Assembly: GCA_965367755.1 (NCBI GenBank) | Contig: CBDUKH010000002.1 | Location: 21,471-85,470, forward strand | Length of the DNA: 64,000 nt | Direction of reading: 5' to 3' | Origin: an uncultured Rhodothermales bacterium | GTDB taxonomy: Bacteria; Bacteroidota; Rhodothermia; Rhodothermales; JABDKH01 | In this document: positions 40,761 to 48,653 of the stretch, piece after piece | Layout: every line of letters starts with the position of its first letter | How positions within the stretch are numbered: the first letter of the stretch is position 1 | Program-made: the position numbers and the translations under genes | Notes under the pieces: generated by a model | The model's database searches: none | The model's input: only the letters and a program-made list of their open reading frames with translations | Told to the model about the DNA's origin: nothing

Positions 40761-41420
40761 ATGTCAAAGACTCGGACGTACACCTCGGAAGATATAACGG
40801 TTACCTATGACGTCGGAAAGTGTATCCATGCGGCTGAATGTGTTCGTGGGGTCCCGGCTGTCTTTGACCCGAATGCCCGTCCCTGGATTCAACCGGAGAA
40901 TGCAACGGCGAAAAGTATTGCTGCTGTAATCGCAAGATGTCCGACCGGGGCGCTGCACTATGAATCTGCCATCGACGGACTGGTCGAGGTATGCGACTCA
41001 AGGAATTCGATTACTACTATTCAAGATGGACCCCTGTACGTTCGCGGTGATGTGGTTATCAACAATAGCGACGGTGACGAAGTGGAGCGCGGGCCGCGGT
41101 TTGCCTTGTGCAGGTGTGGCGCTTCCGGCAACAAGCCATTTTGCGACAACTCCCACAAAGAAATTTCATTCCGTGCACCTCCTTCCCTCGGAGACGGTGG
41201 TATCAAAGAAGTTGAGTATCCTGATTCTCAAGAAGAATTGTGCATCACTCCGTCGCACAATGGACCTCTTCTCCTGAGCGGACCGGTGACGATCAAATCA
41301 GCTGATGGAACCCGGAAGCGTACGGGCTTGAAAACGGCGCTTTGCCGATGTGGGCATTCCTCCAACAAGCCATTCTGTGACGGTTCGCATCGGACCGTAG
41401 GGTTTGACTCAGAGAAATAA
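40761..41420 (+). CDS. iron-sulfur protein: divergent 4Fe-4S mono-cluster-like N-domain plus two CDGSH [2Fe-2S] domains
   Basis: The N-terminal part is CIHAAECVRGVP...ARCPTGAL. Two CDGSH signatures follow: CRCGASGNKPFCDNSH and CRCGHSSNKPFCDGSH. Confidence 0.85.
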   Translation: MSKTRTYTSEDITVTYDVGKCIHAAECVRGVPAVFDPNARPWIQPENATAKSIAAVIARCPTGALHYESAIDGLVEVCDSRNSITTIQDGPLYVRGDVVINNSDGDEVERGPRFALCRCGASGNKPFCDNSHKEISFRAPPSLGDGGIKEVEYPDSQEELCITPSHNGPLLLSGPVTIKSADGTRKRTGLKTALCRCGHSSNKPFCDGSHRTVGFDSEK

Positions 41421-41429
41421 GCTAGACAC

Positions 41430-42221
41430 ATGCCTATAGACACTAGCTTTCAGGCGATAGCCGCTGTGACTGGCCTGGTACTTTTGGCTGCGTGGGAATC
41501 TCTTACTCCATTCTTCAGTTTTTTTCGTAAGCGGGAGCGCGGAATTCATTTCGCGAGAAATATCGTTCTGGGTGCTGTCAACTCGCTCGCCATTGCGTTT
41601 GGTTTTGTGTGGTTGTGGGCTTTGGCTGCCCAATGGTCCGCAGAAAACAATTTCGGGTTTTTGTACCGAATAGACTCGACCGCTATTCGTCTTTTGTTGG
41701 CCATCATTCTGATGGATATATGGACGTATTTGTGGCACATGTTAAATCACCGAGTACCATTCCTGTGGCGATTTCACAGAGTGCATCATTCTGACAACAA
41801 GATGGATGTTTCGACTGCGAGCCGATTCCATCTTGGCGAAATAATCCTGTCGTCTGCGCTTCGAGTGCCGTTAATAGCGATACTTGGGGTGACGCTTCAG
41901 CAGCTAATCATTTATGAGACACTCCTTTTTGCTGTCGTCCAATTCCATCATGCAAATATTGCACTCCCGCCTGCTCTCGACCGTTTGTTGCGGTTGGTGA
42001 TAGTGACACCGGCAATGCACAAGGTCCATCACTCGCGACTTCAGCCAGAAACGGATTCCAACTACAGCTCTCTATTGTCGCTTTGGGACAGGGTTGGCAG
42101 GACGTTCCGACTGCGAGCAAAACTAAATGAAATTGACTTTGGCCTCGAAGGATATGACGATGATGCGTCGCAATCTATCCGTGGCCTTGCCGAGATGCCC
42201 ACCCGGAAAGTTGAGCGTTAG
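41430..42221 (+). CDS. fatty-acid hydroxylase / sterol desaturase-family integral membrane di-iron enzyme
   Basis: His boxes HMLNH, HRVHH, HHANI, HKVHH with 4-5 TM segments. The start lies 9 nt after the CDGSH gene stop. Confidence 0.8.
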   Translation: MPIDTSFQAIAAVTGLVLLAAWESLTPFFSFFRKRERGIHFARNIVLGAVNSLAIAFGFVWLWALAAQWSAENNFGFLYRIDSTAIRLLLAIILMDIWTYLWHMLNHRVPFLWRFHRVHHSDNKMDVSTASRFHLGEIILSSALRVPLIAILGVTLQQLIIYETLLFAVVQFHHANIALPPALDRLLRLVIVTPAMHKVHHSRLQPETDSNYSSLLSLWDRVGRTFRLRAKLNEIDFGLEGYDDDASQSIRGLAEMPTRKVER

Positions 42222-42748
42222 TGCTCGCTGGTTTTGGCTTGGTCCCCGTAGTCTCTCAGGTCTTCACGGAGAAGTCGTGCCCATGTCGAATTGTAAGGGT
42301 GCGCAACTCGAACTAGCTCCCCTTCTCTTTCTAACGGCCGGCCTTCATTCGCCCATCGAAAGATGGATCCTTCCAGATTGGCCACATTAGTGAAGCCGGC
42401 TTCTTGCAGGCGATTAGCAATCTCGGATGATCTGTAGCCTACGGAGCAATAGGCGACGATTCGCGCCGAGGAATCTATGTTCGCCAACTCTGGAAAGTCG
42501 GTGGCGTCTGGAGAAATCTGGATTGCCCGGGGAAGATGGCTCACCGCAAACTCCTCAGGCGTTCGCGTGTCCAGGACTACTATCGTTGAGTCGACCAGAA
42601 GTTGATCAGCAAGCTCTTGCGTTGATATCTGCGTCACATCCGGATATTGGGTCCGGACCAATTTCTCGACTGCCGTAAGACCCCGATCTTGTGAACAGCC
42701 GGATAGCGTAAATGTGGATAGTAGTATCAAGAGGAGTAGGTTCTTCAT
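42218..42748 (-). CDS. rhodanese-domain lipoprotein (exported sulfurtransferase-like)
   Basis: Lipobox FTLSGC and a rhodanese active-site loop AYCSVGYRSS. The start overlaps the upstream radical-SAM stop (ATGA). Confidence 0.8.
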   Translation of the reverse strand: MKNLLLLILLSTFTLSGCSQDRGLTAVEKLVRTQYPDVTQISTQELADQLLVDSTIVVLDTRTPEEFAVSHLPRAIQISPDATDFPELANIDSSARIVAYCSVGYRSSEIANRLQEAGFTNVANLEGSIFRWANEGRPLEREGELVRVAHPYNSTWARLLREDLRDYGDQAKTSEH

Positions 42749-43851
42749 CGGTCTACGGAGTGGTTTGTCGACGGTCGCGATGCCAGGACCGGGAGTGAAA
42801 GGTACGCGCCCTTATTCTCCGAGGTAGTGCCGGTACTGGTTTCCTGATGTCTTTGCCGGTTTGGAAGCGAAGCGGGGCGTATGCCGCCACTCACAAATCG
42901 TTGTGTGACGTATTTCGTCCAACCGTAATCTATTTTCGAAGGAAGGCTCTTCCAAAAGTATTTAGACCCTGGAGAAGTCGCAAAACTAGGTTCGAAATAG
43001 CAATTGATCGAACATCCCTTGCAGACACTATGACGCCCTTCCATTTCACGATGATTGGCGACGGTGTCTCCGTGCCATACGTCAAAAAGGTCGCCATGAA
43101 GTTTAATCTTTTCGAGACCGTAGTGATAGCAAGGAAGCACCAGCTCGTTGAATGGTGAAACGACAACACAGGTAGAGACTGCTTTGCACAGAGGTTTCTC
43201 AGGGTCGTTACCGCCGTTTCTTCTGAGTTCGAGAAACGAGGGATTCAAGTATGTATATGGTCGGGAGGCCATCGACTCCATGCGAGTCATCACTTCTTCC
43301 GAAAGGGAATCGCCGAGAGTCGCATACTCGAAGAGTGGATTGAGAATGAGTACGAGTTTATTCGGGAAAGAGATGGTTTGATATATCTCCTCCATGTGGT
43401 GGAAATTGTCGTTCGTTACGGTGAACAAGATATCCGGGTTCTCGCCCAGGGACAATGCTACTTCGATTGACTCCATCAATTTGTCAAAGCAGGCGACACC
43501 ACGAGAAGTGTTGTGTTCGTCGGCGATTGGAGAGTCGATCGAAAAATGTAGGAGGTCGACCTTTCCAGCGAGTTCGGTTGCACGTTTGGGATAGAGCAGG
43601 CCGTTGGTCGTAACGCTGGTAGCCAGTCCAATTTCTTTCGCCATTCCTAGCATCTCGTGCAAGCGGGTATGCAATAGCGGTTCGCCACCGGTAAAGTCTA
43701 CAATTTTGACACCGAGGCGTTTTAGATCTCGAAGGTTGACAGCAACATCTTCCAGCTCGACCATGGGTGATGGTTGTTCCCAGATGTCACAGAAGCCACA
43801 TTTCGCATTACAGCGATACGTTACATAGTAGTTGCAGAGTAGCGGCGACAT
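42745..43851 (-). CDS. radical SAM enzyme with a C-terminal Cys-rich (SPASM/twitch-like) region, specificity unknown
   Basis: CNYYVTYRCNAKCGFCDIW (the CxxxCxxC cluster), FTGGEPLL, and C-terminal cysteines (CKAVSTC...PCYHY...CKGCSINCY). ATG 43851 is preferred over the upstream ATG 43962 because homologous enzymes start close to the cluster motif. Confidence 0.8.
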   Translation of the reverse strand: MSPLLCNYYVTYRCNAKCGFCDIWEQPSPMVELEDVAVNLRDLKRLGVKIVDFTGGEPLLHTRLHEMLGMAKEIGLATSVTTNGLLYPKRATELAGKVDLLHFSIDSPIADEHNTSRGVACFDKLMESIEVALSLGENPDILFTVTNDNFHHMEEIYQTISFPNKLVLILNPLFEYATLGDSLSEEVMTRMESMASRPYTYLNPSFLELRRNGGNDPEKPLCKAVSTCVVVSPFNELVLPCYHYGLEKIKLHGDLFDVWHGDTVANHREMEGRHSVCKGCSINCYFEPSFATSPGSKYFWKSLPSKIDYGWTKYVTQRFVSGGIRPASLPNRQRHQETSTGTTSENKGAYLSLPVLASRPSTNHSVDR

Positions 43852-44234
43852 GATGATGCAGTGGGGTTGTCTGGATATGATGGCCTGTACCTTGTGACGT
43901 CTTATTTGTTCGTTTCCCGTCGTCAGCGTAATAGTGCAGCGATTGCGAAACCGGAGTTCCATGGCCGAGGTGACGTATGTATCGGCGGTCTATCGTGTGT
44001 TACTAATTGTCTGACGCGACGAGAGACGCGCGGCCCCGGCGTTGCGGACAGGTAGCAATTTGGACGAAAATGTCGGCGGGGGCCTCCACTTCCTCCTCCC
44101 CGTCAGCAACTTAACCACAATTCGCTCACTCCGCCAATGACTTTTTGCTAGAAACTTCCTAGGAAAAAATCTAGGAAAATAACCCCCTTGACAATTCGCA
44201 GCGAAAGCCCGACGTCGTGATCAGAATGGTTGCG

Positions 44235-45158
44235 CTAGCCCTTCTCCATACCGCTAAAAATAAAGTCTCTTACCGCCGTCGACGTGATTCCACCGTCCTT
44301 GCTCAACAACAATATCATACGAGCATGTTTCCTGCCAGGCACCTCAACAAGCTTGCTGTCGACACCACATCCGACAAGGGCGTCATGCAGCATCCTCGAC
44401 TGACGTTTAAGACTGGCGAATTCAGAACCTCCGTACATAATCAAGAACGGTGGAGCGTCTGCTGTTGCATACTGCAGTGTGGAAGCAGCAACAGGCCAAT
44501 TTTCCGACCTGTCTACGAGGCTGAATCGTCTTTCCAAATAGGTGGTCATCAACCCTGACCGGTTCGTTTCTTCATCCGTCATATCGTATCCGGCCCCACT
44601 CACAGCAATGACTCCGGCGATATCGGTGTATCGCCCTCCGGCACGAGTCAGGACCGCCGGGTCCAACGCAACCCGGGAGATCAGGTGAGAACCTGCAGAG
44701 TGACCGGCAAGAAATACTGTCGACGAGTCGGCGCCGAACGATCCTGCATTGTTCTGAACCCAGGCCACAGCAGTCGCAACGTCATTCACCTGGGATTCCC
44801 AATGCACGCCCGGAATTAATCGGTAATTGATTACAGCCGTTGCGATGCCCTTCGATGCATAATATCGACCGATATTCAGGTAGATGTCTTTTCCGCCGAA
44901 AGTCAGATCTTTGTCACCACTCGTCCACCCCCCACCGTGGACAAAAATCAGGACAGGCCACGATGTCCCCGTATCCGGAAGGTAGAAGTTGAGTCTATTC
45001 TTCCTGTCTGTCTCACCCAGCGGCGAGTATGGTATGTCAGCGAACGTTCTAGTCGATTCTATACTGTCATACACCAGAGGCATCCCCGCATAGTACACGA
45101 CGACACAGCCCTGCATGATGACGCAGGATAGAATTACCAAGATCGTCCTTTTGATCAC
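44235..45158 (-). CDS. alpha/beta-hydrolase (esterase/lipase-type) lipoprotein
   Basis: N-terminal hydrophobic segment with MQGC, HGGGW oxyanion motif, GHSAGSH nucleophile elbow, late His (GRKHA). Confidence 0.8.
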   Translation of the reverse strand: MIKRTILVILSCVIMQGCVVVYYAGMPLVYDSIESTRTFADIPYSPLGETDRKNRLNFYLPDTGTSWPVLIFVHGGGWTSGDKDLTFGGKDIYLNIGRYYASKGIATAVINYRLIPGVHWESQVNDVATAVAWVQNNAGSFGADSSTVFLAGHSAGSHLISRVALDPAVLTRAGGRYTDIAGVIAVSGAGYDMTDEETNRSGLMTTYLERRFSLVDRSENWPVAASTLQYATADAPPFLIMYGGSEFASLKRQSRMLHDALVGCGVDSKLVEVPGRKHARMILLLSKDGGITSTAVRDFIFSGMEKG

Positions 45159-45271
45159 GATAGAATGTCAGATAGATGCCGAGATTGCGAAATCCGATGC
45201 CGTGTTTATTCTGAAAGAGATATAAAAGTTGCGTAAACTCTTATCCGGTATCAATAATCCACGAGGGAGTC

Positions 45272-47794
45272 GTGTACAGTCACTATTTCAAGACAATTTT
45301 CCTGAGCGCGACATTATGTTTGGGCACAACTCACTTGCTGGTCGGGCAATCGCTTTTATCGCCTACAGAATTTCTTGGATATGAGCCCGGCGAACGGTTC
45401 ACGCGACATCACGATGTTGTCTCTTACTTTCAACATCTTGATGCCAATTCAAGCAATCTGGTTTTGTCCCAGTATGGAGAAACTAACGAGGGCCGACCTC
45501 TCCTGACGGCATTCATTTCAACGCCGGAAAATCTTGAGCAGTTGGAATCCCATCGGATAAACAATCTTAGTCTTACGCGACTCGCCGAGGGTCCTCGGGA
45601 CGTGACCGGTCCGGTAATTGTCTGGTTAAGCTACGGTGTTCATGGAAACGAAAGCTCGTCTACCGAAGCGGCCATCAAGACTGCCTACGAACTGGTTGGA
45701 GGATCATCTGACGAGGTTGCATCATGGCTTGAAAACACAATCGTCGTTATCGATCCATGCCTCAATCCTGACGGTCGAGACCGCTACGTCAACTGGTACA
45801 ACATGATGGTGGGCAAGTATCCCAATCAAAATCGAGATGCTATTGAACACAATGAACCCTGGCCGGGTGGCCGCACCAACCACTACTATTTCGATTTGAA
45901 CAGGGACTGGGCCTGGTTGACGCAAAAGGAATCCGTACAACGCCTGGCTGCCTACAGCGAATGGATGCCCCACGTACATGTTGATTTTCATGAACAGGGT
46001 ATCAATAACCCGTATTACTTCGCTCCTGCAGCCGAACCTTATCACGAGCTGATCACTGAAAGTCAGCGCCATATCGAAGGCCTGATTGGTGCACACAACC
46101 GACAGTACTTTGATGCCAACGACTGGCTCTATTTCACCCGCGAGGAATTCGATTTGTTGTATCCCGGTTATGGGGATACATGGCCTGTTTTCAACGGAGC
46201 GATAGGAATGACTTACGAACAGGCCGGATCGGGACGTGCCGGCCTAAGAATTTTAAACGACCAGGAGCACGTGTTGACACTGGAGGACCGAATTAATCAC
46301 CACTATACGGCGGGATTGTCTACCATCGAGGCTGCATGGCAGAACCGCAGTACCATTCTTGAGGAGTTCGCCAACTATTACGAAACTGCCGTCCAGGGTG
46401 TTGGACCTTTCGCAAACTATATCATAGACGCAAGCTCAAACTCTGACGATGTGCGGGCGTTAACTCAATTGCTCGACAGCCAAGGAATCCGCTATGCCTA
46501 TGCATCCAATGCGACCAGAATATCGGGCTTTTCCTATTCGTCAGGAAACACTGAAACGACCACCGTTGAGGCCGGGGATATCGTTATTGCGTCCGCGCAA
46601 CCCAAGTCTCGCCTGCTGTCGGTTTTAATGGAACCTGAAACAGCTCTCTCAGATTCGTTGACATACGATATTACCGCATGGGCTTTACCGTACATGTTTA
46701 ATGTTTCTGCAGTTGCCACGAATGCCAGAGTCGCGACGAGTGACAATCCCGGGACTTCACAACCAAGCCCGACCGAGGCCGAACCGTACGCCTACCTCCT
46801 GACGTGGGAGAGTGATTCAGATGTTCGCGTTCTAACAAGCCTGCTCGCTGAGGATGTCCATGTCAGGTATTCGACAGGCCCTTTTAGGGTCGGTGGAAAA
46901 ACATACCCGCGCGGTACTATTATCGTTACCGGCGCCGACAATCGTCACCTGGAGTCGACTCTCGGCGGTATAGTCCGCAGTGCTACAGAGAAAGAGACTC
47001 AACCGCTCGCTACACTAAGCAGTGGATTTGTCGACGATGGGTCTGATCTCGGCTCGAACACCGTGTCGTATCTAAAAGCACCAAGAGTCATGTTACTCTC
47101 CGGTCCGTCTCTCTCAAGCAGCTCCGTTGGCGAGCTTTGGAACTACTTTGACAACCAAATTAATTACCCGGTGACGATTGTCGATGAAAGTGATTTTGGC
47201 AATTTAAATCTTAGCGATTATGATGTAGTAATTCTTCCGGCCGGGTCGTACTCGGGACTCCTTGCAGATAATGCATTGCAAGATCTGACGTCCTGGATAC
47301 GGAGCGGCGGGACTGCTGTCGCCATCGAATCGGCTGCCTCCTTTTTCGCGGGCAAAGAAGGATTCGAACTCAAAATGCGCGAGGCTGAAAAAGAACCCGA
47401 CTCTACGAAAGCATCTCTGCTTAAACCGTACGGCGAGCGCGGCCGAGACCGGCTCGGAGATCGAATAACTGGCGCCATCTACAAAGCTAGAGTTGATGAA
47501 ACGCATCCGCTCGCCTTCGGATATGGTAGTTCCTACTACACCCTCAAACGATCCAATCGTTCGTTTGAATATCTCACCGACGGATGGAACGTTGCAGTAA
47601 TCGAAGATGGCGAACCGGTCAGCGGCTTCGTCGGACACAAAACGGGATCCAGTACTAAAGAGAGCCTCGTTTGGGGCCATCAGACGATGGGACGCGGTGA
47701 CATAGTCTTCCTTATCGATAACCCTGTCTACCGAGGATTCTGGCACGGCGGCAAATTGGTACTGGCCAACGCTGTATTTCTCGTAGGCCAGTAA
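45272..47794 (+). CDS. large M14-family zinc carboxypeptidase-like protein, secreted
   Basis: Signal peptide, YGVHGNESSS (H-x-x-E zinc site), NPDGRD, VDFHEQ, 840 aa. GTG start preceded by gagggag. Confidence 0.8.
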   Translation: MYSHYFKTIFLSATLCLGTTHLLVGQSLLSPTEFLGYEPGERFTRHHDVVSYFQHLDANSSNLVLSQYGETNEGRPLLTAFISTPENLEQLESHRINNLSLTRLAEGPRDVTGPVIVWLSYGVHGNESSSTEAAIKTAYELVGGSSDEVASWLENTIVVIDPCLNPDGRDRYVNWYNMMVGKYPNQNRDAIEHNEPWPGGRTNHYYFDLNRDWAWLTQKESVQRLAAYSEWMPHVHVDFHEQGINNPYYFAPAAEPYHELITESQRHIEGLIGAHNRQYFDANDWLYFTREEFDLLYPGYGDTWPVFNGAIGMTYEQAGSGRAGLRILNDQEHVLTLEDRINHHYTAGLSTIEAAWQNRSTILEEFANYYETAVQGVGPFANYIIDASSNSDDVRALTQLLDSQGIRYAYASNATRISGFSYSSGNTETTTVEAGDIVIASAQPKSRLLSVLMEPETALSDSLTYDITAWALPYMFNVSAVATNARVATSDNPGTSQPSPTEAEPYAYLLTWESDSDVRVLTSLLAEDVHVRYSTGPFRVGGKTYPRGTIIVTGADNRHLESTLGGIVRSATEKETQPLATLSSGFVDDGSDLGSNTVSYLKAPRVMLLSGPSLSSSSVGELWNYFDNQINYPVTIVDESDFGNLNLSDYDVVILPAGSYSGLLADNALQDLTSWIRSGGTAVAIESAASFFAGKEGFELKMREAEKEPDSTKASLLKPYGERGRDRLGDRITGAIYKARVDETHPLAFGYGSSYYTLKRSNRSFEYLTDGWNVAVIEDGEPVSGFVGHKTGSSTKESLVWGHQTMGRGDIVFLIDNPVYRGFWHGGKLVLANAVFLVGQ

Positions 47795-47814: not shown

Positions 47815-48312
47815 TTACATAGCGACGAGCAGCTCGTCCAGTCGGTCAAGCGTCGAGGCTAGCCCCTCTTCCATTCCCATCTTGAGGATGGATTCCAGAT
47901 CATCCAGGGATTTGTACGAGACAATAGTCTCCACCAACGTGTTCGCTCCCTTGTCTGCAAACTTTACTTGCCAGTCCGCAGCAGGCATTTCCGGATTTAT
48001 ATTCCCGCTACTATCGCAGAACGCATCTGTCGTTTCATAGAAATCGATAGGAGATATTCGGGTGTAGTCGGTCCATCCCCAGTACTCCGTACCATCCGGA
48101 TCAACCATCGCGTAGTGCCAGTGGCCTCCTTCCTTGAAGTCCATAGACTTCGTTTTTGTTGTGAACGGCTTGGGAGCAAACCAGCGGTTGAGTAATTCGG
48201 CCCGCGTGTAACAATTCCAGACCGTCTGGCGGTCTGCGGCGAACTCTCGGCGTACCGTGATTTTGTTGTTAACTCGATCTGCGAGGAATTCGAATTGGAG
48301 CGTGTTTTTCAT
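47815..48312 (-). CDS. SRPBCC/AHSA1-domain protein
   Basis: 165 aa. VWNCYTRAELLNRWFAPKPF and the overall pattern are typical of Aha1/START-like SRPBCC proteins encoded after ArsR regulators. It overlaps the arsR-like stop by 4 nt. Confidence 0.7.
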   Translation of the reverse strand: MKNTLQFEFLADRVNNKITVRREFAADRQTVWNCYTRAELLNRWFAPKPFTTKTKSMDFKEGGHWHYAMVDPDGTEYWGWTDYTRISPIDFYETTDAFCDSSGNINPEMPAADWQVKFADKGANTLVETIVSYKSLDDLESILKMGMEEGLASTLDRLDELLVAM

Positions 48313-48653
48313 TTCTGTGTATTTTTCATTTTCAGTAGCACATCGTCGAGCTGATCGAACCGGTCTTCCCAGATCTTTCTGAACTGCTCTAGCCAGTGGT
48401 CGATCTCGTTCAGCTTGTCGACTCTTAATTCGTACAGTATCTCACGGCCGTCTTTTGTTGATGACACCAGCTCACATTCAGAGAGGATCTGTACGTGTTT
48501 GGAGATTGTCGGACGGGCAACATCGAAATGCCCTGCGATCGACCCCGCGGTCATAGACTGTGATGCCAGGAGCACCAGTATGGCGCGACGGGTCGGGTCG
48601 GCAATGGCCTGGAATGGATCTCGTCTCAGTTGCACTATAAACCTGCTGTTCAA
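48309..48653 (-). CDS. ArsR/SmtB-family winged-helix transcriptional regulator
   Basis: FQAIADPTRRAILVLLASQSMTAGSIAGHFDVARPTISKHVQIL is the canonical ArsR HTH. Confidence 0.88.
   Translation of the reverse strand: MNSRFIVQLRRDPFQAIADPTRRAILVLLASQSMTAGSIAGHFDVARPTISKHVQILSECELVSSTKDGREILYELRVDKLNEIDHWLEQFRKIWEDRFDQLDDVLLKMKNTQK

Follow-up and report, generated by a model that had tools for sequence, protein, structure and literature searches.

What does a radical S-adenosylmethionine (radical SAM) enzyme do when its gene stands between those of two exported lipoproteins? The question is raised by contig CBDUKH010000002.1 of an uncultured Rhodothermales bacterium, of which a stretch of 64,000 nucleotides was analyzed (the window; coordinates and strands are those of the window unless they follow a locus name). 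The gene of a 368-amino-acid radical SAM protein (42745..43851, minus strand) follows that of an alpha/beta-hydrolase lipoprotein and precedes that of a rhodanese lipoprotein (42218..42748, minus strand), with which it shares a 4-nt ATGA stop/start overlap (42745..42748, minus strand). A preliminary description had read this arrangement as a radical SAM enzyme coupled to an exported sulfurtransferase behind a long leader. The open reading frames (ORFs) and motifs on which it relied are all present, namely, CxxxCxxC, GGEPLL, a Cys-rich block, the 4-nt overlap, the rhodanese loop CSVGYRS, the lipobox LSGC, and the upstream hydrolase. A coupled module behind a regulatory leader is, however, mostly not supported. 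Instead, we give an even chance to the reading that the protein is a sugar-modifying, twitch-type radical SAM enzyme that has been parted from its glycosyltransferase (GT) partners and set beside an unrelated unit of a rhodanese and a membrane hydroxylase.

The protein carries the motif CNAKCGFC (C14, C18, and C21; 43789..43812, minus strand) of the SAM-cleaving [4Fe-4S] cluster, the GGE SAM-binding motif within GGEPLL, and a match to Pfam Radical_SAM (PF04055; 70.1 bits; cutoff, 29.5), which together place it in the radical SAM superfamily. No signal peptide is present. Cysteine conservation was judged across 73 representatives of the family with identity down to 22%, and seven cysteines are kept in nearly all of them: the three of the cluster motif plus C222, C241, C277, and C280. 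These last four belong to a C-terminal block (43000..43188, minus strand) that also includes C284, and their spacing, C-x18-C-x35-C-x2-C, would fit a fully ligated twitch-type auxiliary cluster. The Cys block of the preliminary description is present, but its C-x6-C is not a conserved pair: C229 varies among the representatives. The Pfam SPASM domain (PF13186) is detectable in the distant relatives P0187 and P0203; the Pfam scan of the window protein itself returned generic Radical_SAM only, with neither SPASM nor an RNA-binding domain among the matches.

The best NCBIfam match, and the sole strong one to cover most of the protein (residues 3 to 291), is the archaeal PTO1314 family TIGR03961, at 92.2 bits against a cutoff of 306. 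All NCBIfam matches of the window protein are far under their cutoffs, and none of the distant relatives tested attains any curated family cutoff, the best of them scoring 164.6 bits against TIGR03961. LipA, BioB, and MiaB are absent from the 25 best NCBIfam matches, from the Pfam matches, and from the listed fold matches. MoaA, the GTP 3',8-cyclase, has the same superfamily fold and a C-terminal auxiliary cluster, but its models (TIGR02666, TIGR02668, and NF001199) match the window protein only to about residue 150 to 190, with alignments ending at residues 151 to 187 and scores of 55 to 60 bits against cutoffs of 231 to 325. When PDB sequences were searched with the profile of the family, the alignments covered the N-terminal core only, and no near solved structure emerged. 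Literature searches on TIGR03961/PTO1314 and on radical SAM proteins in connection with Rhodothermales or Cytophagales found nothing relevant. Judged by Pfam, NCBIfam, PDB, and Foldseek together, the protein belongs to no characterized family, in agreement with the earlier view that it has the architecture of neither MoaA, LipA, BioB, nor MiaB.

The AlphaFold2 (AF2) model (pTM, 0.80) combines a partial barrel with a C-terminal domain and also shows a helix at residues 297 to 320 and a disordered tail. Its top Foldseek match is BlsE (E value, 7.5e-14; TMq, 0.60); SuiB, MoaA, viperin, anSME, AbmM, and DesII also match, with TM scores of about 0.5 to 0.6, as do SpeY, SkfB, and CteB, and none of the matches is close. 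The alignments of the model with BlsE, SuiB, and anSME span about 300 columns. As modeled, it is closest to those of sugar-, aminosugar-, and nucleotide-modifying twitch/SPASM enzymes. BlsE, DesII, AbmM, and SpeY share with it the partial TIM barrel and the C-terminal auxiliary-cluster domain, with a similar four-Cys pattern; they differ in that they sit in antibiotic clusters and act on soluble substrates, and their identity to the window protein is 13 to 22%. BtrN is a further twitch radical SAM enzyme of sugars and aminosugars.

The C-terminal region (42745..42966, minus strand), as delimited by the alignment and the AF2 model, had been described as a tail rich in S, T, P, and R. Its first part is instead a conserved aromatic/basic helix (residues 297 to 320), while disorder is borne out from about residue 335, where pLDDT is <50. 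The helix was considered as a membrane-binding amphipathic helix, but its hydrophobic moment is unremarkable and we make no such claim. In proteins of the Rhodothermales type, the tail proper (residues ~325 to 368; 42745-42870, minus strand) varies in length and carries the short motifs R-x-A-x-LP, GDGA, and LPVL, of which A-x-LP and LPVL are present in the window protein and GDGA is unrecognizable. Cytophagales proteins of the family (~326 aa) have no tail. The tail motifs could be docking sites.

The preliminary description had seen no genes that would supply a substrate or cofactor. For the family elsewhere, candidate partner genes exist, and they encode GT2 glycosyltransferases, a NodB-type deacetylase, a flippase-like protein, and a PHP-type phosphoesterase. 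In loci from Latescibacterota (L086), Calditrichota (L087), KSB1 (L088), and BMS3Abin05 (L089), a GT2/Glyco_transf_21 cluster ends at the radical SAM gene, on the same strand and with an overlap or hardly any gap. A Polysacc_deac_1 deacetylase and an LPG_synthase_TM flippase-like protein are also encoded in L086 and L089; L087 and L088 hold DUF3108 instead. The GT2 proteins are nearest to PgaC/IcaA, HpnI, and NodC, with weak HpnI/HpnB matches, and the deacetylase is nearest to NodB/PgdA, all of these below cutoffs. The NodB proteins have no signal peptide and would thus be cytoplasmic, like the radical SAM protein. A Bacteroidota metagenome-assembled genome (MAG; L079) has the order GT-flippase-GT-deacetylase-GT-radical SAM, with a radical SAM protein 55% identical to that of the window, and this locus bridges the clustered and unclustered arrangements. 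Directly 3' of the radical SAM gene, a protein of ~520 to 555 aa is encoded in four loci (L087:6998-8611, L088:7073-8695, L089:7085-8749, and L173:7626-9191, all on the plus strand). Its sequence includes the motif DLHWHS and passes the domain model of CehA/McbA metallohydrolases, with a weak PHP-domain match in addition; the protein occurs in four phylum-level lineages, and neither the window nor the loci from Bacteroidota and Rhodothermota encode it. Since the loci clustered with GT2 and NodB genes occupy deep branches of the radical SAM tree, the GT2 linkage is probably ancestral.

This gene order recalls a known route in which HpnI, a GT2 enzyme, adds N-acetylglucosamine, the deacetylase HpnK makes glucosamine, and the radical SAM enzyme HpnJ turns bacteriohopanetetrol (BHT)-glucosamine into the cyclitol ether (PMC13459092). 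The deep-branch clusters have the same GT-deacetylase-radical SAM order as HpnI/HpnK/HpnJ(/HpnL) and include the flippase-like LPG_synthase_TM protein; they differ in that their deacetylase is NodB-type and that the HpnJ, HpnI, and HpnK models all remain below cutoff. HpnJ is of a different radical SAM class, and HpnL is LPG_synthase_TM-like. The HpnJ model is absent from the reported NCBIfam matches of the window protein, and neither shc nor any other hopanoid gene was found in any locus; the likeness to HpnJ, as to Cds, is one of pathway logic only. Cds is a radical SAM enzyme that makes a carbocycle, calditol, from the lipid-linked hexose head group of a glycerol dialkyl glycerol tetraether (GDGT) lipid (PMC13459092). 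Its homologues occur mainly in acidophiles, and TIGR03961 is named after the acidophile Picrophilus torridus; at 92 bits against the cutoff of 306, the window protein is outside that family in any case. The organisms considered here differ in being bacteria without GDGT lipids.

For the sugar-modifying enzyme that we favor, reductive cleavage of SAM would generate a 5'-deoxyadenosyl radical, and this would take a hydrogen from an amino-sugar unit that has lost its N-acetyl group and forms part of a membrane-associated glycoconjugate or glycolipid. This unit would be assembled on the cytoplasmic face by the GT2 enzymes and the NodB-type deacetylase, the auxiliary cluster would handle the electron, and the product would be processed and then flipped outward. 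The chemistry may be an oxidation, an epimerization, or a ring contraction, for which the HpnI-HpnK-HpnJ route and archaeal Cds may be compared. In Bacteroidota and Rhodothermota, the radical SAM gene would have moved off from its GT2 and NodB partners, and in one Rhodothermales lineage, it would have landed between the genes of an esterase and a rhodanese lipoprotein, to be co-transcribed with them, while the rhodanese would functionally belong with a convergently encoded hydroxylase of the FA_hydroxylase family.

Several observations weigh against this reading. None of the GT2, NodB, flippase-like, or PHP partners is encoded within the 64-kb window, and the linkage to a GT cluster was found in 5 loci only and is missing in L173. 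The gene downstream of the radical SAM gene in L086 encodes a TrmI-like methyltransferase, and in some lineages the radical SAM gene lies beside RNA-modification genes, encoding SpoU in L028/L049 and Sua5/YrdC in L173. The trio of esterase, radical SAM, and rhodanese genes is tightly kept, to the point that both junctions overlap in L092, and may yet point to a shared function. Members of the radical SAM family have no known substrate or product. The esterase of the trio was considered as a substitute for the NodB deacetylase and rejected, since it is exported as a lipoprotein, whereas the NodB proteins stay in the cytoplasm.

A more specific form of the same idea would have the enzyme perform an HpnJ/Cds-like ring contraction, yielding a carbocyclic pseudo-sugar on the glucosamine head group of an undescribed envelope glycolipid or glycan of the Fibrobacteres-Chlorobi-Bacteroidetes (FCB) superphylum, and would add that the Rhodothermales operon, with its esterase and its rhodanese/FA_hydroxylase pair, remodels this lipid on both membrane faces. 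In this full form we consider the proposal rather unlikely.

The family to which the window protein belongs is, as far as its sequences indicate, large, highly conserved, uncharacterized, and spread across the FCB superphylum. A protein search returned 3,445 matches, the best 120 of which are 60 to 79% identical and all generically named, and a relative is encoded in >587 stretches of species-representative reference genomes. These reference genomes belong to Rhodothermales, Cytophagales (Hymenobacter, Pontibacter, Spirosoma, Dyadobacter, and Rufibacter), and Chloroherpetonaceae. Divergent members (30 to 45% identity) are found in Calditrichota, Latescibacterota, KSB1, Mcinerneyibacterium, and others. 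With clustering at 50%, an exhaustive profile search yielded just 143 representatives with E values below 1e-30, which indicates that the family is compact. In most genomes, the gene is single copy and stands alone. One member, P0286 (L089:6001-7014), is named "cyclic pyranopterin monophosphate synthase" in its NCBI record; with MoaA models far under cutoff for the family, this name looks like an over-annotation.

If GT clusters are the ancestral company of the family, what is to be made of the rhodanese? A relative of the window rhodanese lies near the radical SAM gene in 1 of 80 reference loci (L009), and at the Pfam level no rhodanese is found among the 75 immediate downstream neighbors of radical SAM genes (0/75). 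From the rhodanese side, whose subfamily context was sampled in 80 metagenome loci, the radical SAM gene adjoins the rhodanese gene in a single one (L099). The adjacency is not conserved across either family. The recurrent neighbors of the radical SAM gene are lineage specific and of housekeeping type, including gamma-carbonic-anhydrase-like hexapeptide proteins, HhH-GPD glycosylases, AccD, RidA, and OmpA.

The coupling is nonetheless kept within one Rhodothermales clade, and to that extent the preliminary description was correct; as a trait of the family it does not stand. The arrangement of this lineage comprises a divergent M14 peptidase gene, which serves as a synteny marker kept in the trio loci (45272..47794, plus strand), then the esterase, radical SAM, and rhodanese genes, and finally the convergent FA_hydroxylase gene. 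It is complete in the window, L081/L082, L083, L085, L090, and L092; L009, on a short contig, shows the trio only, and L091 lacks the esterase. Across the trio loci, identity of the radical SAM protein to that of the window falls from about 79% to about 64% (tblastn). The radical SAM and rhodanese genes overlap by 4 nt in the window, L083, L090, and L092, and they are separated by 15 nt in L081 and by 64 nt in L091; in L092, the esterase/radical SAM junction overlaps too. ATGA overlaps of 4 nt are a common type of operon junction and unremarkable alone. In a neighbor-joining tree, the pairing loci fall on two adjacent basal branches of the Rhodothermales group, and about 20 other Rhodothermales loci have no such pairing, a pattern that fits a single origin followed by vertical inheritance.

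Could the trio then be a true functional module acting on one substrate, with the rhodanese as the source of persulfide sulfur in a radical sulfur insertion, or with all three proteins remodeling a lipid across the membrane? The order esterase-radical SAM-rhodanese is kept in about 9 loci down to the identity of about 64%, the 4-nt overlaps recur in four of them, the active-site Cys of the rhodanese is invariant, and among the fold matches is AbmM, a twitch radical SAM enzyme that acts in thiosugar formation. Set against this, the rhodanese is exported, with a conserved lipobox or, in a fused form, a transmembrane segment, whereas the radical SAM protein has no signal peptide; the pairing is missing in 79 of 80 loci on the reference side and likewise in 79 of 80 on the rhodanese side; its place on the tree fits a single origin; and the rhodanese is elsewhere fused or adjacent to an FA_hydroxylase instead. 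We consider a module of this kind distinctly unlikely.

The rhodanese itself is a single-domain protein of 176 aa (PF00581; 65.1 bits; cutoff, 22.2). Its active-site loop CSVGYRS (C101 to S107; 42428..42448, minus strand) is invariant, as YCSVGYRS, in 29 members of the rhodanese family, and most of these have a G-C-[ST]-Q-D motif at the lipobox; the lipobox of the window protein is LSGC (42695..42706, minus strand). It shares with the sulfurtransferases GlpE and PspE the rhodanese fold and the active-site Cys in a six-residue loop (CSVGYR). PspE is periplasmic. The model NF045521 (rhoda_near_glyco) aligns to the window protein over nearly its full length, at 118.8 bits against a cutoff of 145, which leaves the protein outside that family. 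Unlike GlpE, PspE, and NF045521, the window rhodanese is lipoprotein anchored and associated with an FA_hydroxylase, and some of its relatives lie near a pair of TIGR04282 and TIGR04283 GTs.

In the window, the FA_hydroxylase-family membrane hydroxylase (PF04116; 102 bits) is encoded at 41430..42221 on the plus strand, convergent with the rhodanese gene, with which its 3' end shares 4 nt. An FA_hydroxylase gene adjoins the rhodanese gene in about 10 of the 80 metagenome loci, in varying orientations (L093, L107, L132, L137, L149, L152, and L165 are among them), and at L117:5005-6447 (plus strand) a single 480-aa protein unites FA_hydroxylase and rhodanese domains with a transmembrane segment between them. 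This adjacency and the fusion indicate that the rhodanese belongs with the membrane hydroxylase and not with the radical SAM protein, and the association looks more general than the radical SAM-rhodanese pairing. In the window, a CDGSH/Fer4_19 iron-sulfur protein (zf-CDGSH, 130 bits; Fer4_19, 79 bits) is encoded at 40761..41420 on the plus strand, ending 9 nt ahead of the FA_hydroxylase gene on the same strand; a protein of this type is also encoded in the neighborhood of L092. It may be the electron donor to the putative di-iron hydroxylase.

GT2 proteins near the rhodanese pass the TIGR04283 cutoff at L107:8600-9613 (minus strand), L149:6688-8343 (plus strand), and L157:59-1288 (minus strand), the one in L149 passing TIGR04282 as well. 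In these three loci, the TIGR04282/TIGR04283 GTs, which carry the NCBI name "arsenosugar biosynthesis glycosyltransferase," are within a few kilobases of the rhodanese, a proximity that would explain the name rhoda_near_glyco as we read it. Neither the window nor the trio loci encode a TIGR04283-type GT, and a literature search on TIGR04282 and TIGR04283 found nothing relevant. ArsS-like chemistry was considered and rejected, there being no ArsS-type match and no arsenosugar-type GT in the window or the trio loci.

A different reading takes the company of the GTs as coincidental and the radical SAM protein as a housekeeping enzyme of RNA modification or cofactor biosynthesis. Its very high conservation and its occurrence as a single-copy, stand-alone gene in most genomes agree with such a role, as do the neighboring genes of a SpoU methylase (L028/L049), a TrmI-like protein (L086), and Sua5/YrdC (L173), the weak similarities to MoaA and TYW1, and the one NCBI record that names a member after the cyclic pyranopterin step. 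These RNA-related neighbors, however, vary between lineages, the MoaA scores are those given above, and no RNA-binding domain was detected by Pfam, whereas the linkage to GT2 and NodB genes, with overlapping genes, recurs in four phylum-level lineages and the Bacteroidota MAG. The probability that we assign to a housekeeping role is as small as that of the functional module.

The region between the esterase and radical SAM genes (43852..44234, minus strand) had been described as a leader of about 380 nt without a convincing ORF, with a G/C-rich tract and CTAG-centered palindromes, and this is accurate: it measures 383 nt, contains the G-rich tract, and has neither a convincing nor a conserved ORF. 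Only three intergenic regions of the window are longer, the median being 52 nt. Three CTAG motifs, including a perfect 10-bp palindrome, TTCCTAGGAA, are packed into 27 nt (44148..44174, minus strand); CTAG has a frequency of 0.86 per kb, and nowhere else in the 64 kb do three copies fall within 40 nt. The cluster is a candidate protein-binding site. Searches of the region for sigma-70 and Bacteroidetes-type promoter patterns gave no match, and a repeat search found short imperfect repeats only.

The suggestion that this region is a cis-regulatory RNA, such as a riboswitch, for the radical SAM and rhodanese genes could draw on its length, its G-rich tract, the locally unique CTAG cluster, and the lack of a terminator-like site between the esterase and radical SAM genes, but we hold it to be very improbable. 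An Rfam scan of 41000-46500 at an E value of <=1 gave no match, and the predicted RNA folds no better than shuffled sequence (z = -0.05). As a conserved feature, the leader fails: it is missing in every relative examined, where the esterase and radical SAM genes overlap by 4 nt in L092 and are 6 nt apart in L090, 8 nt apart in L009, and 47 to 57 nt apart in L081/L083/L085, and blastn found no copy of it elsewhere in the window or in the loci fetched by then. An apparent likeness of the G-rich tract to the short L081/L085 spacers was followed up and was undetected by blastn. As far as these comparisons go, the 383-nt region is a strain-specific insertion, found in this genome, and not a conserved regulatory RNA. 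It may supply a local promoter or operator, for which the CTAG palindrome is a candidate site.

Least likely of all is that the protein is a SPASM/twitch maturase of a ribosomally synthesized and posttranslationally modified peptide whose precursor might be encoded in the 383-nt gap, because the NCBIfam matches to peptide maturases (StsB, 68 bits; WgkB, 58 bits) are far under cutoffs of 625 to 650 and cover mostly the core, the protein starts 13 residues ahead of its cluster motif without an N-terminal peptide-recognition domain, and the long upstream gap, which could be cited in favor of this proposal together with SuiB, SkfB, and CteB among the fold matches, is absent in relatives and has no conserved ORF, while no transporter, protease, precursor, or small-ORF gene recurs nearby, in line with the earlier statement that no substrate peptide is evident.

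Alignment of the radical SAM protein with 25 homologues supports a gene start at 43851. The identical protein has a public gene call (P0001; 405 aa) that begins instead at an in-frame ATG farther upstream, at 43962; no homologue supports this ATG, and the entry probably carries a false N-terminal extension of 37 residues. The first gene of the trio (44235..45158, minus strand) encodes an esterase/lipase-type alpha/beta-hydrolase (BD-FAE, 99 bits; Abhydrolase_3, 77 bits) with the motifs HGG and GHSAG; its lipobox Cys is conserved among relatives. In all trio loci, the motif G-C-x-x-[VI]-Y-[YF]-x-G-M-x-x-V-Y-D (VYYxGMPxVYD type) follows straight after the lipobox Cys; such strong conservation right at the N terminus of a lipoprotein is unusual. 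Beyond the M14 peptidase gene, two small genes with a 4-nt overlap lie at 47815-48653 on the minus strand. Judged by eye, 48309..48653 resembles an ArsR/SmtB-type helix-turn-helix regulator and 47815..48312 an SRPBCC/AHSA1-like protein.

For the Rhodothermales bacterium of the window, the radical SAM-rhodanese coupling and the long leader should not be taken for a sulfur-insertion module or for a riboswitch. A second, separate, and firmer association is that of the exported rhodanese with the membrane FA_hydroxylase, of which the fused form is an instance. The radical SAM family, unstudied for all its size and strong conservation, occurs in common bacteria of soil, marine, and sediment habitats across the FCB superphylum, aerobes included. 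The most useful result of this analysis is that such an FCB-wide family is linked to a glycosyltransferase/deacetylase pathway. The link to GT2, NodB, flippase-like, and PHP proteins gives a testable hypothesis, according to which the family would carry out a radical step in the synthesis of an envelope glycoconjugate, in parallel to the formation of the cyclitol ether and of calditol.

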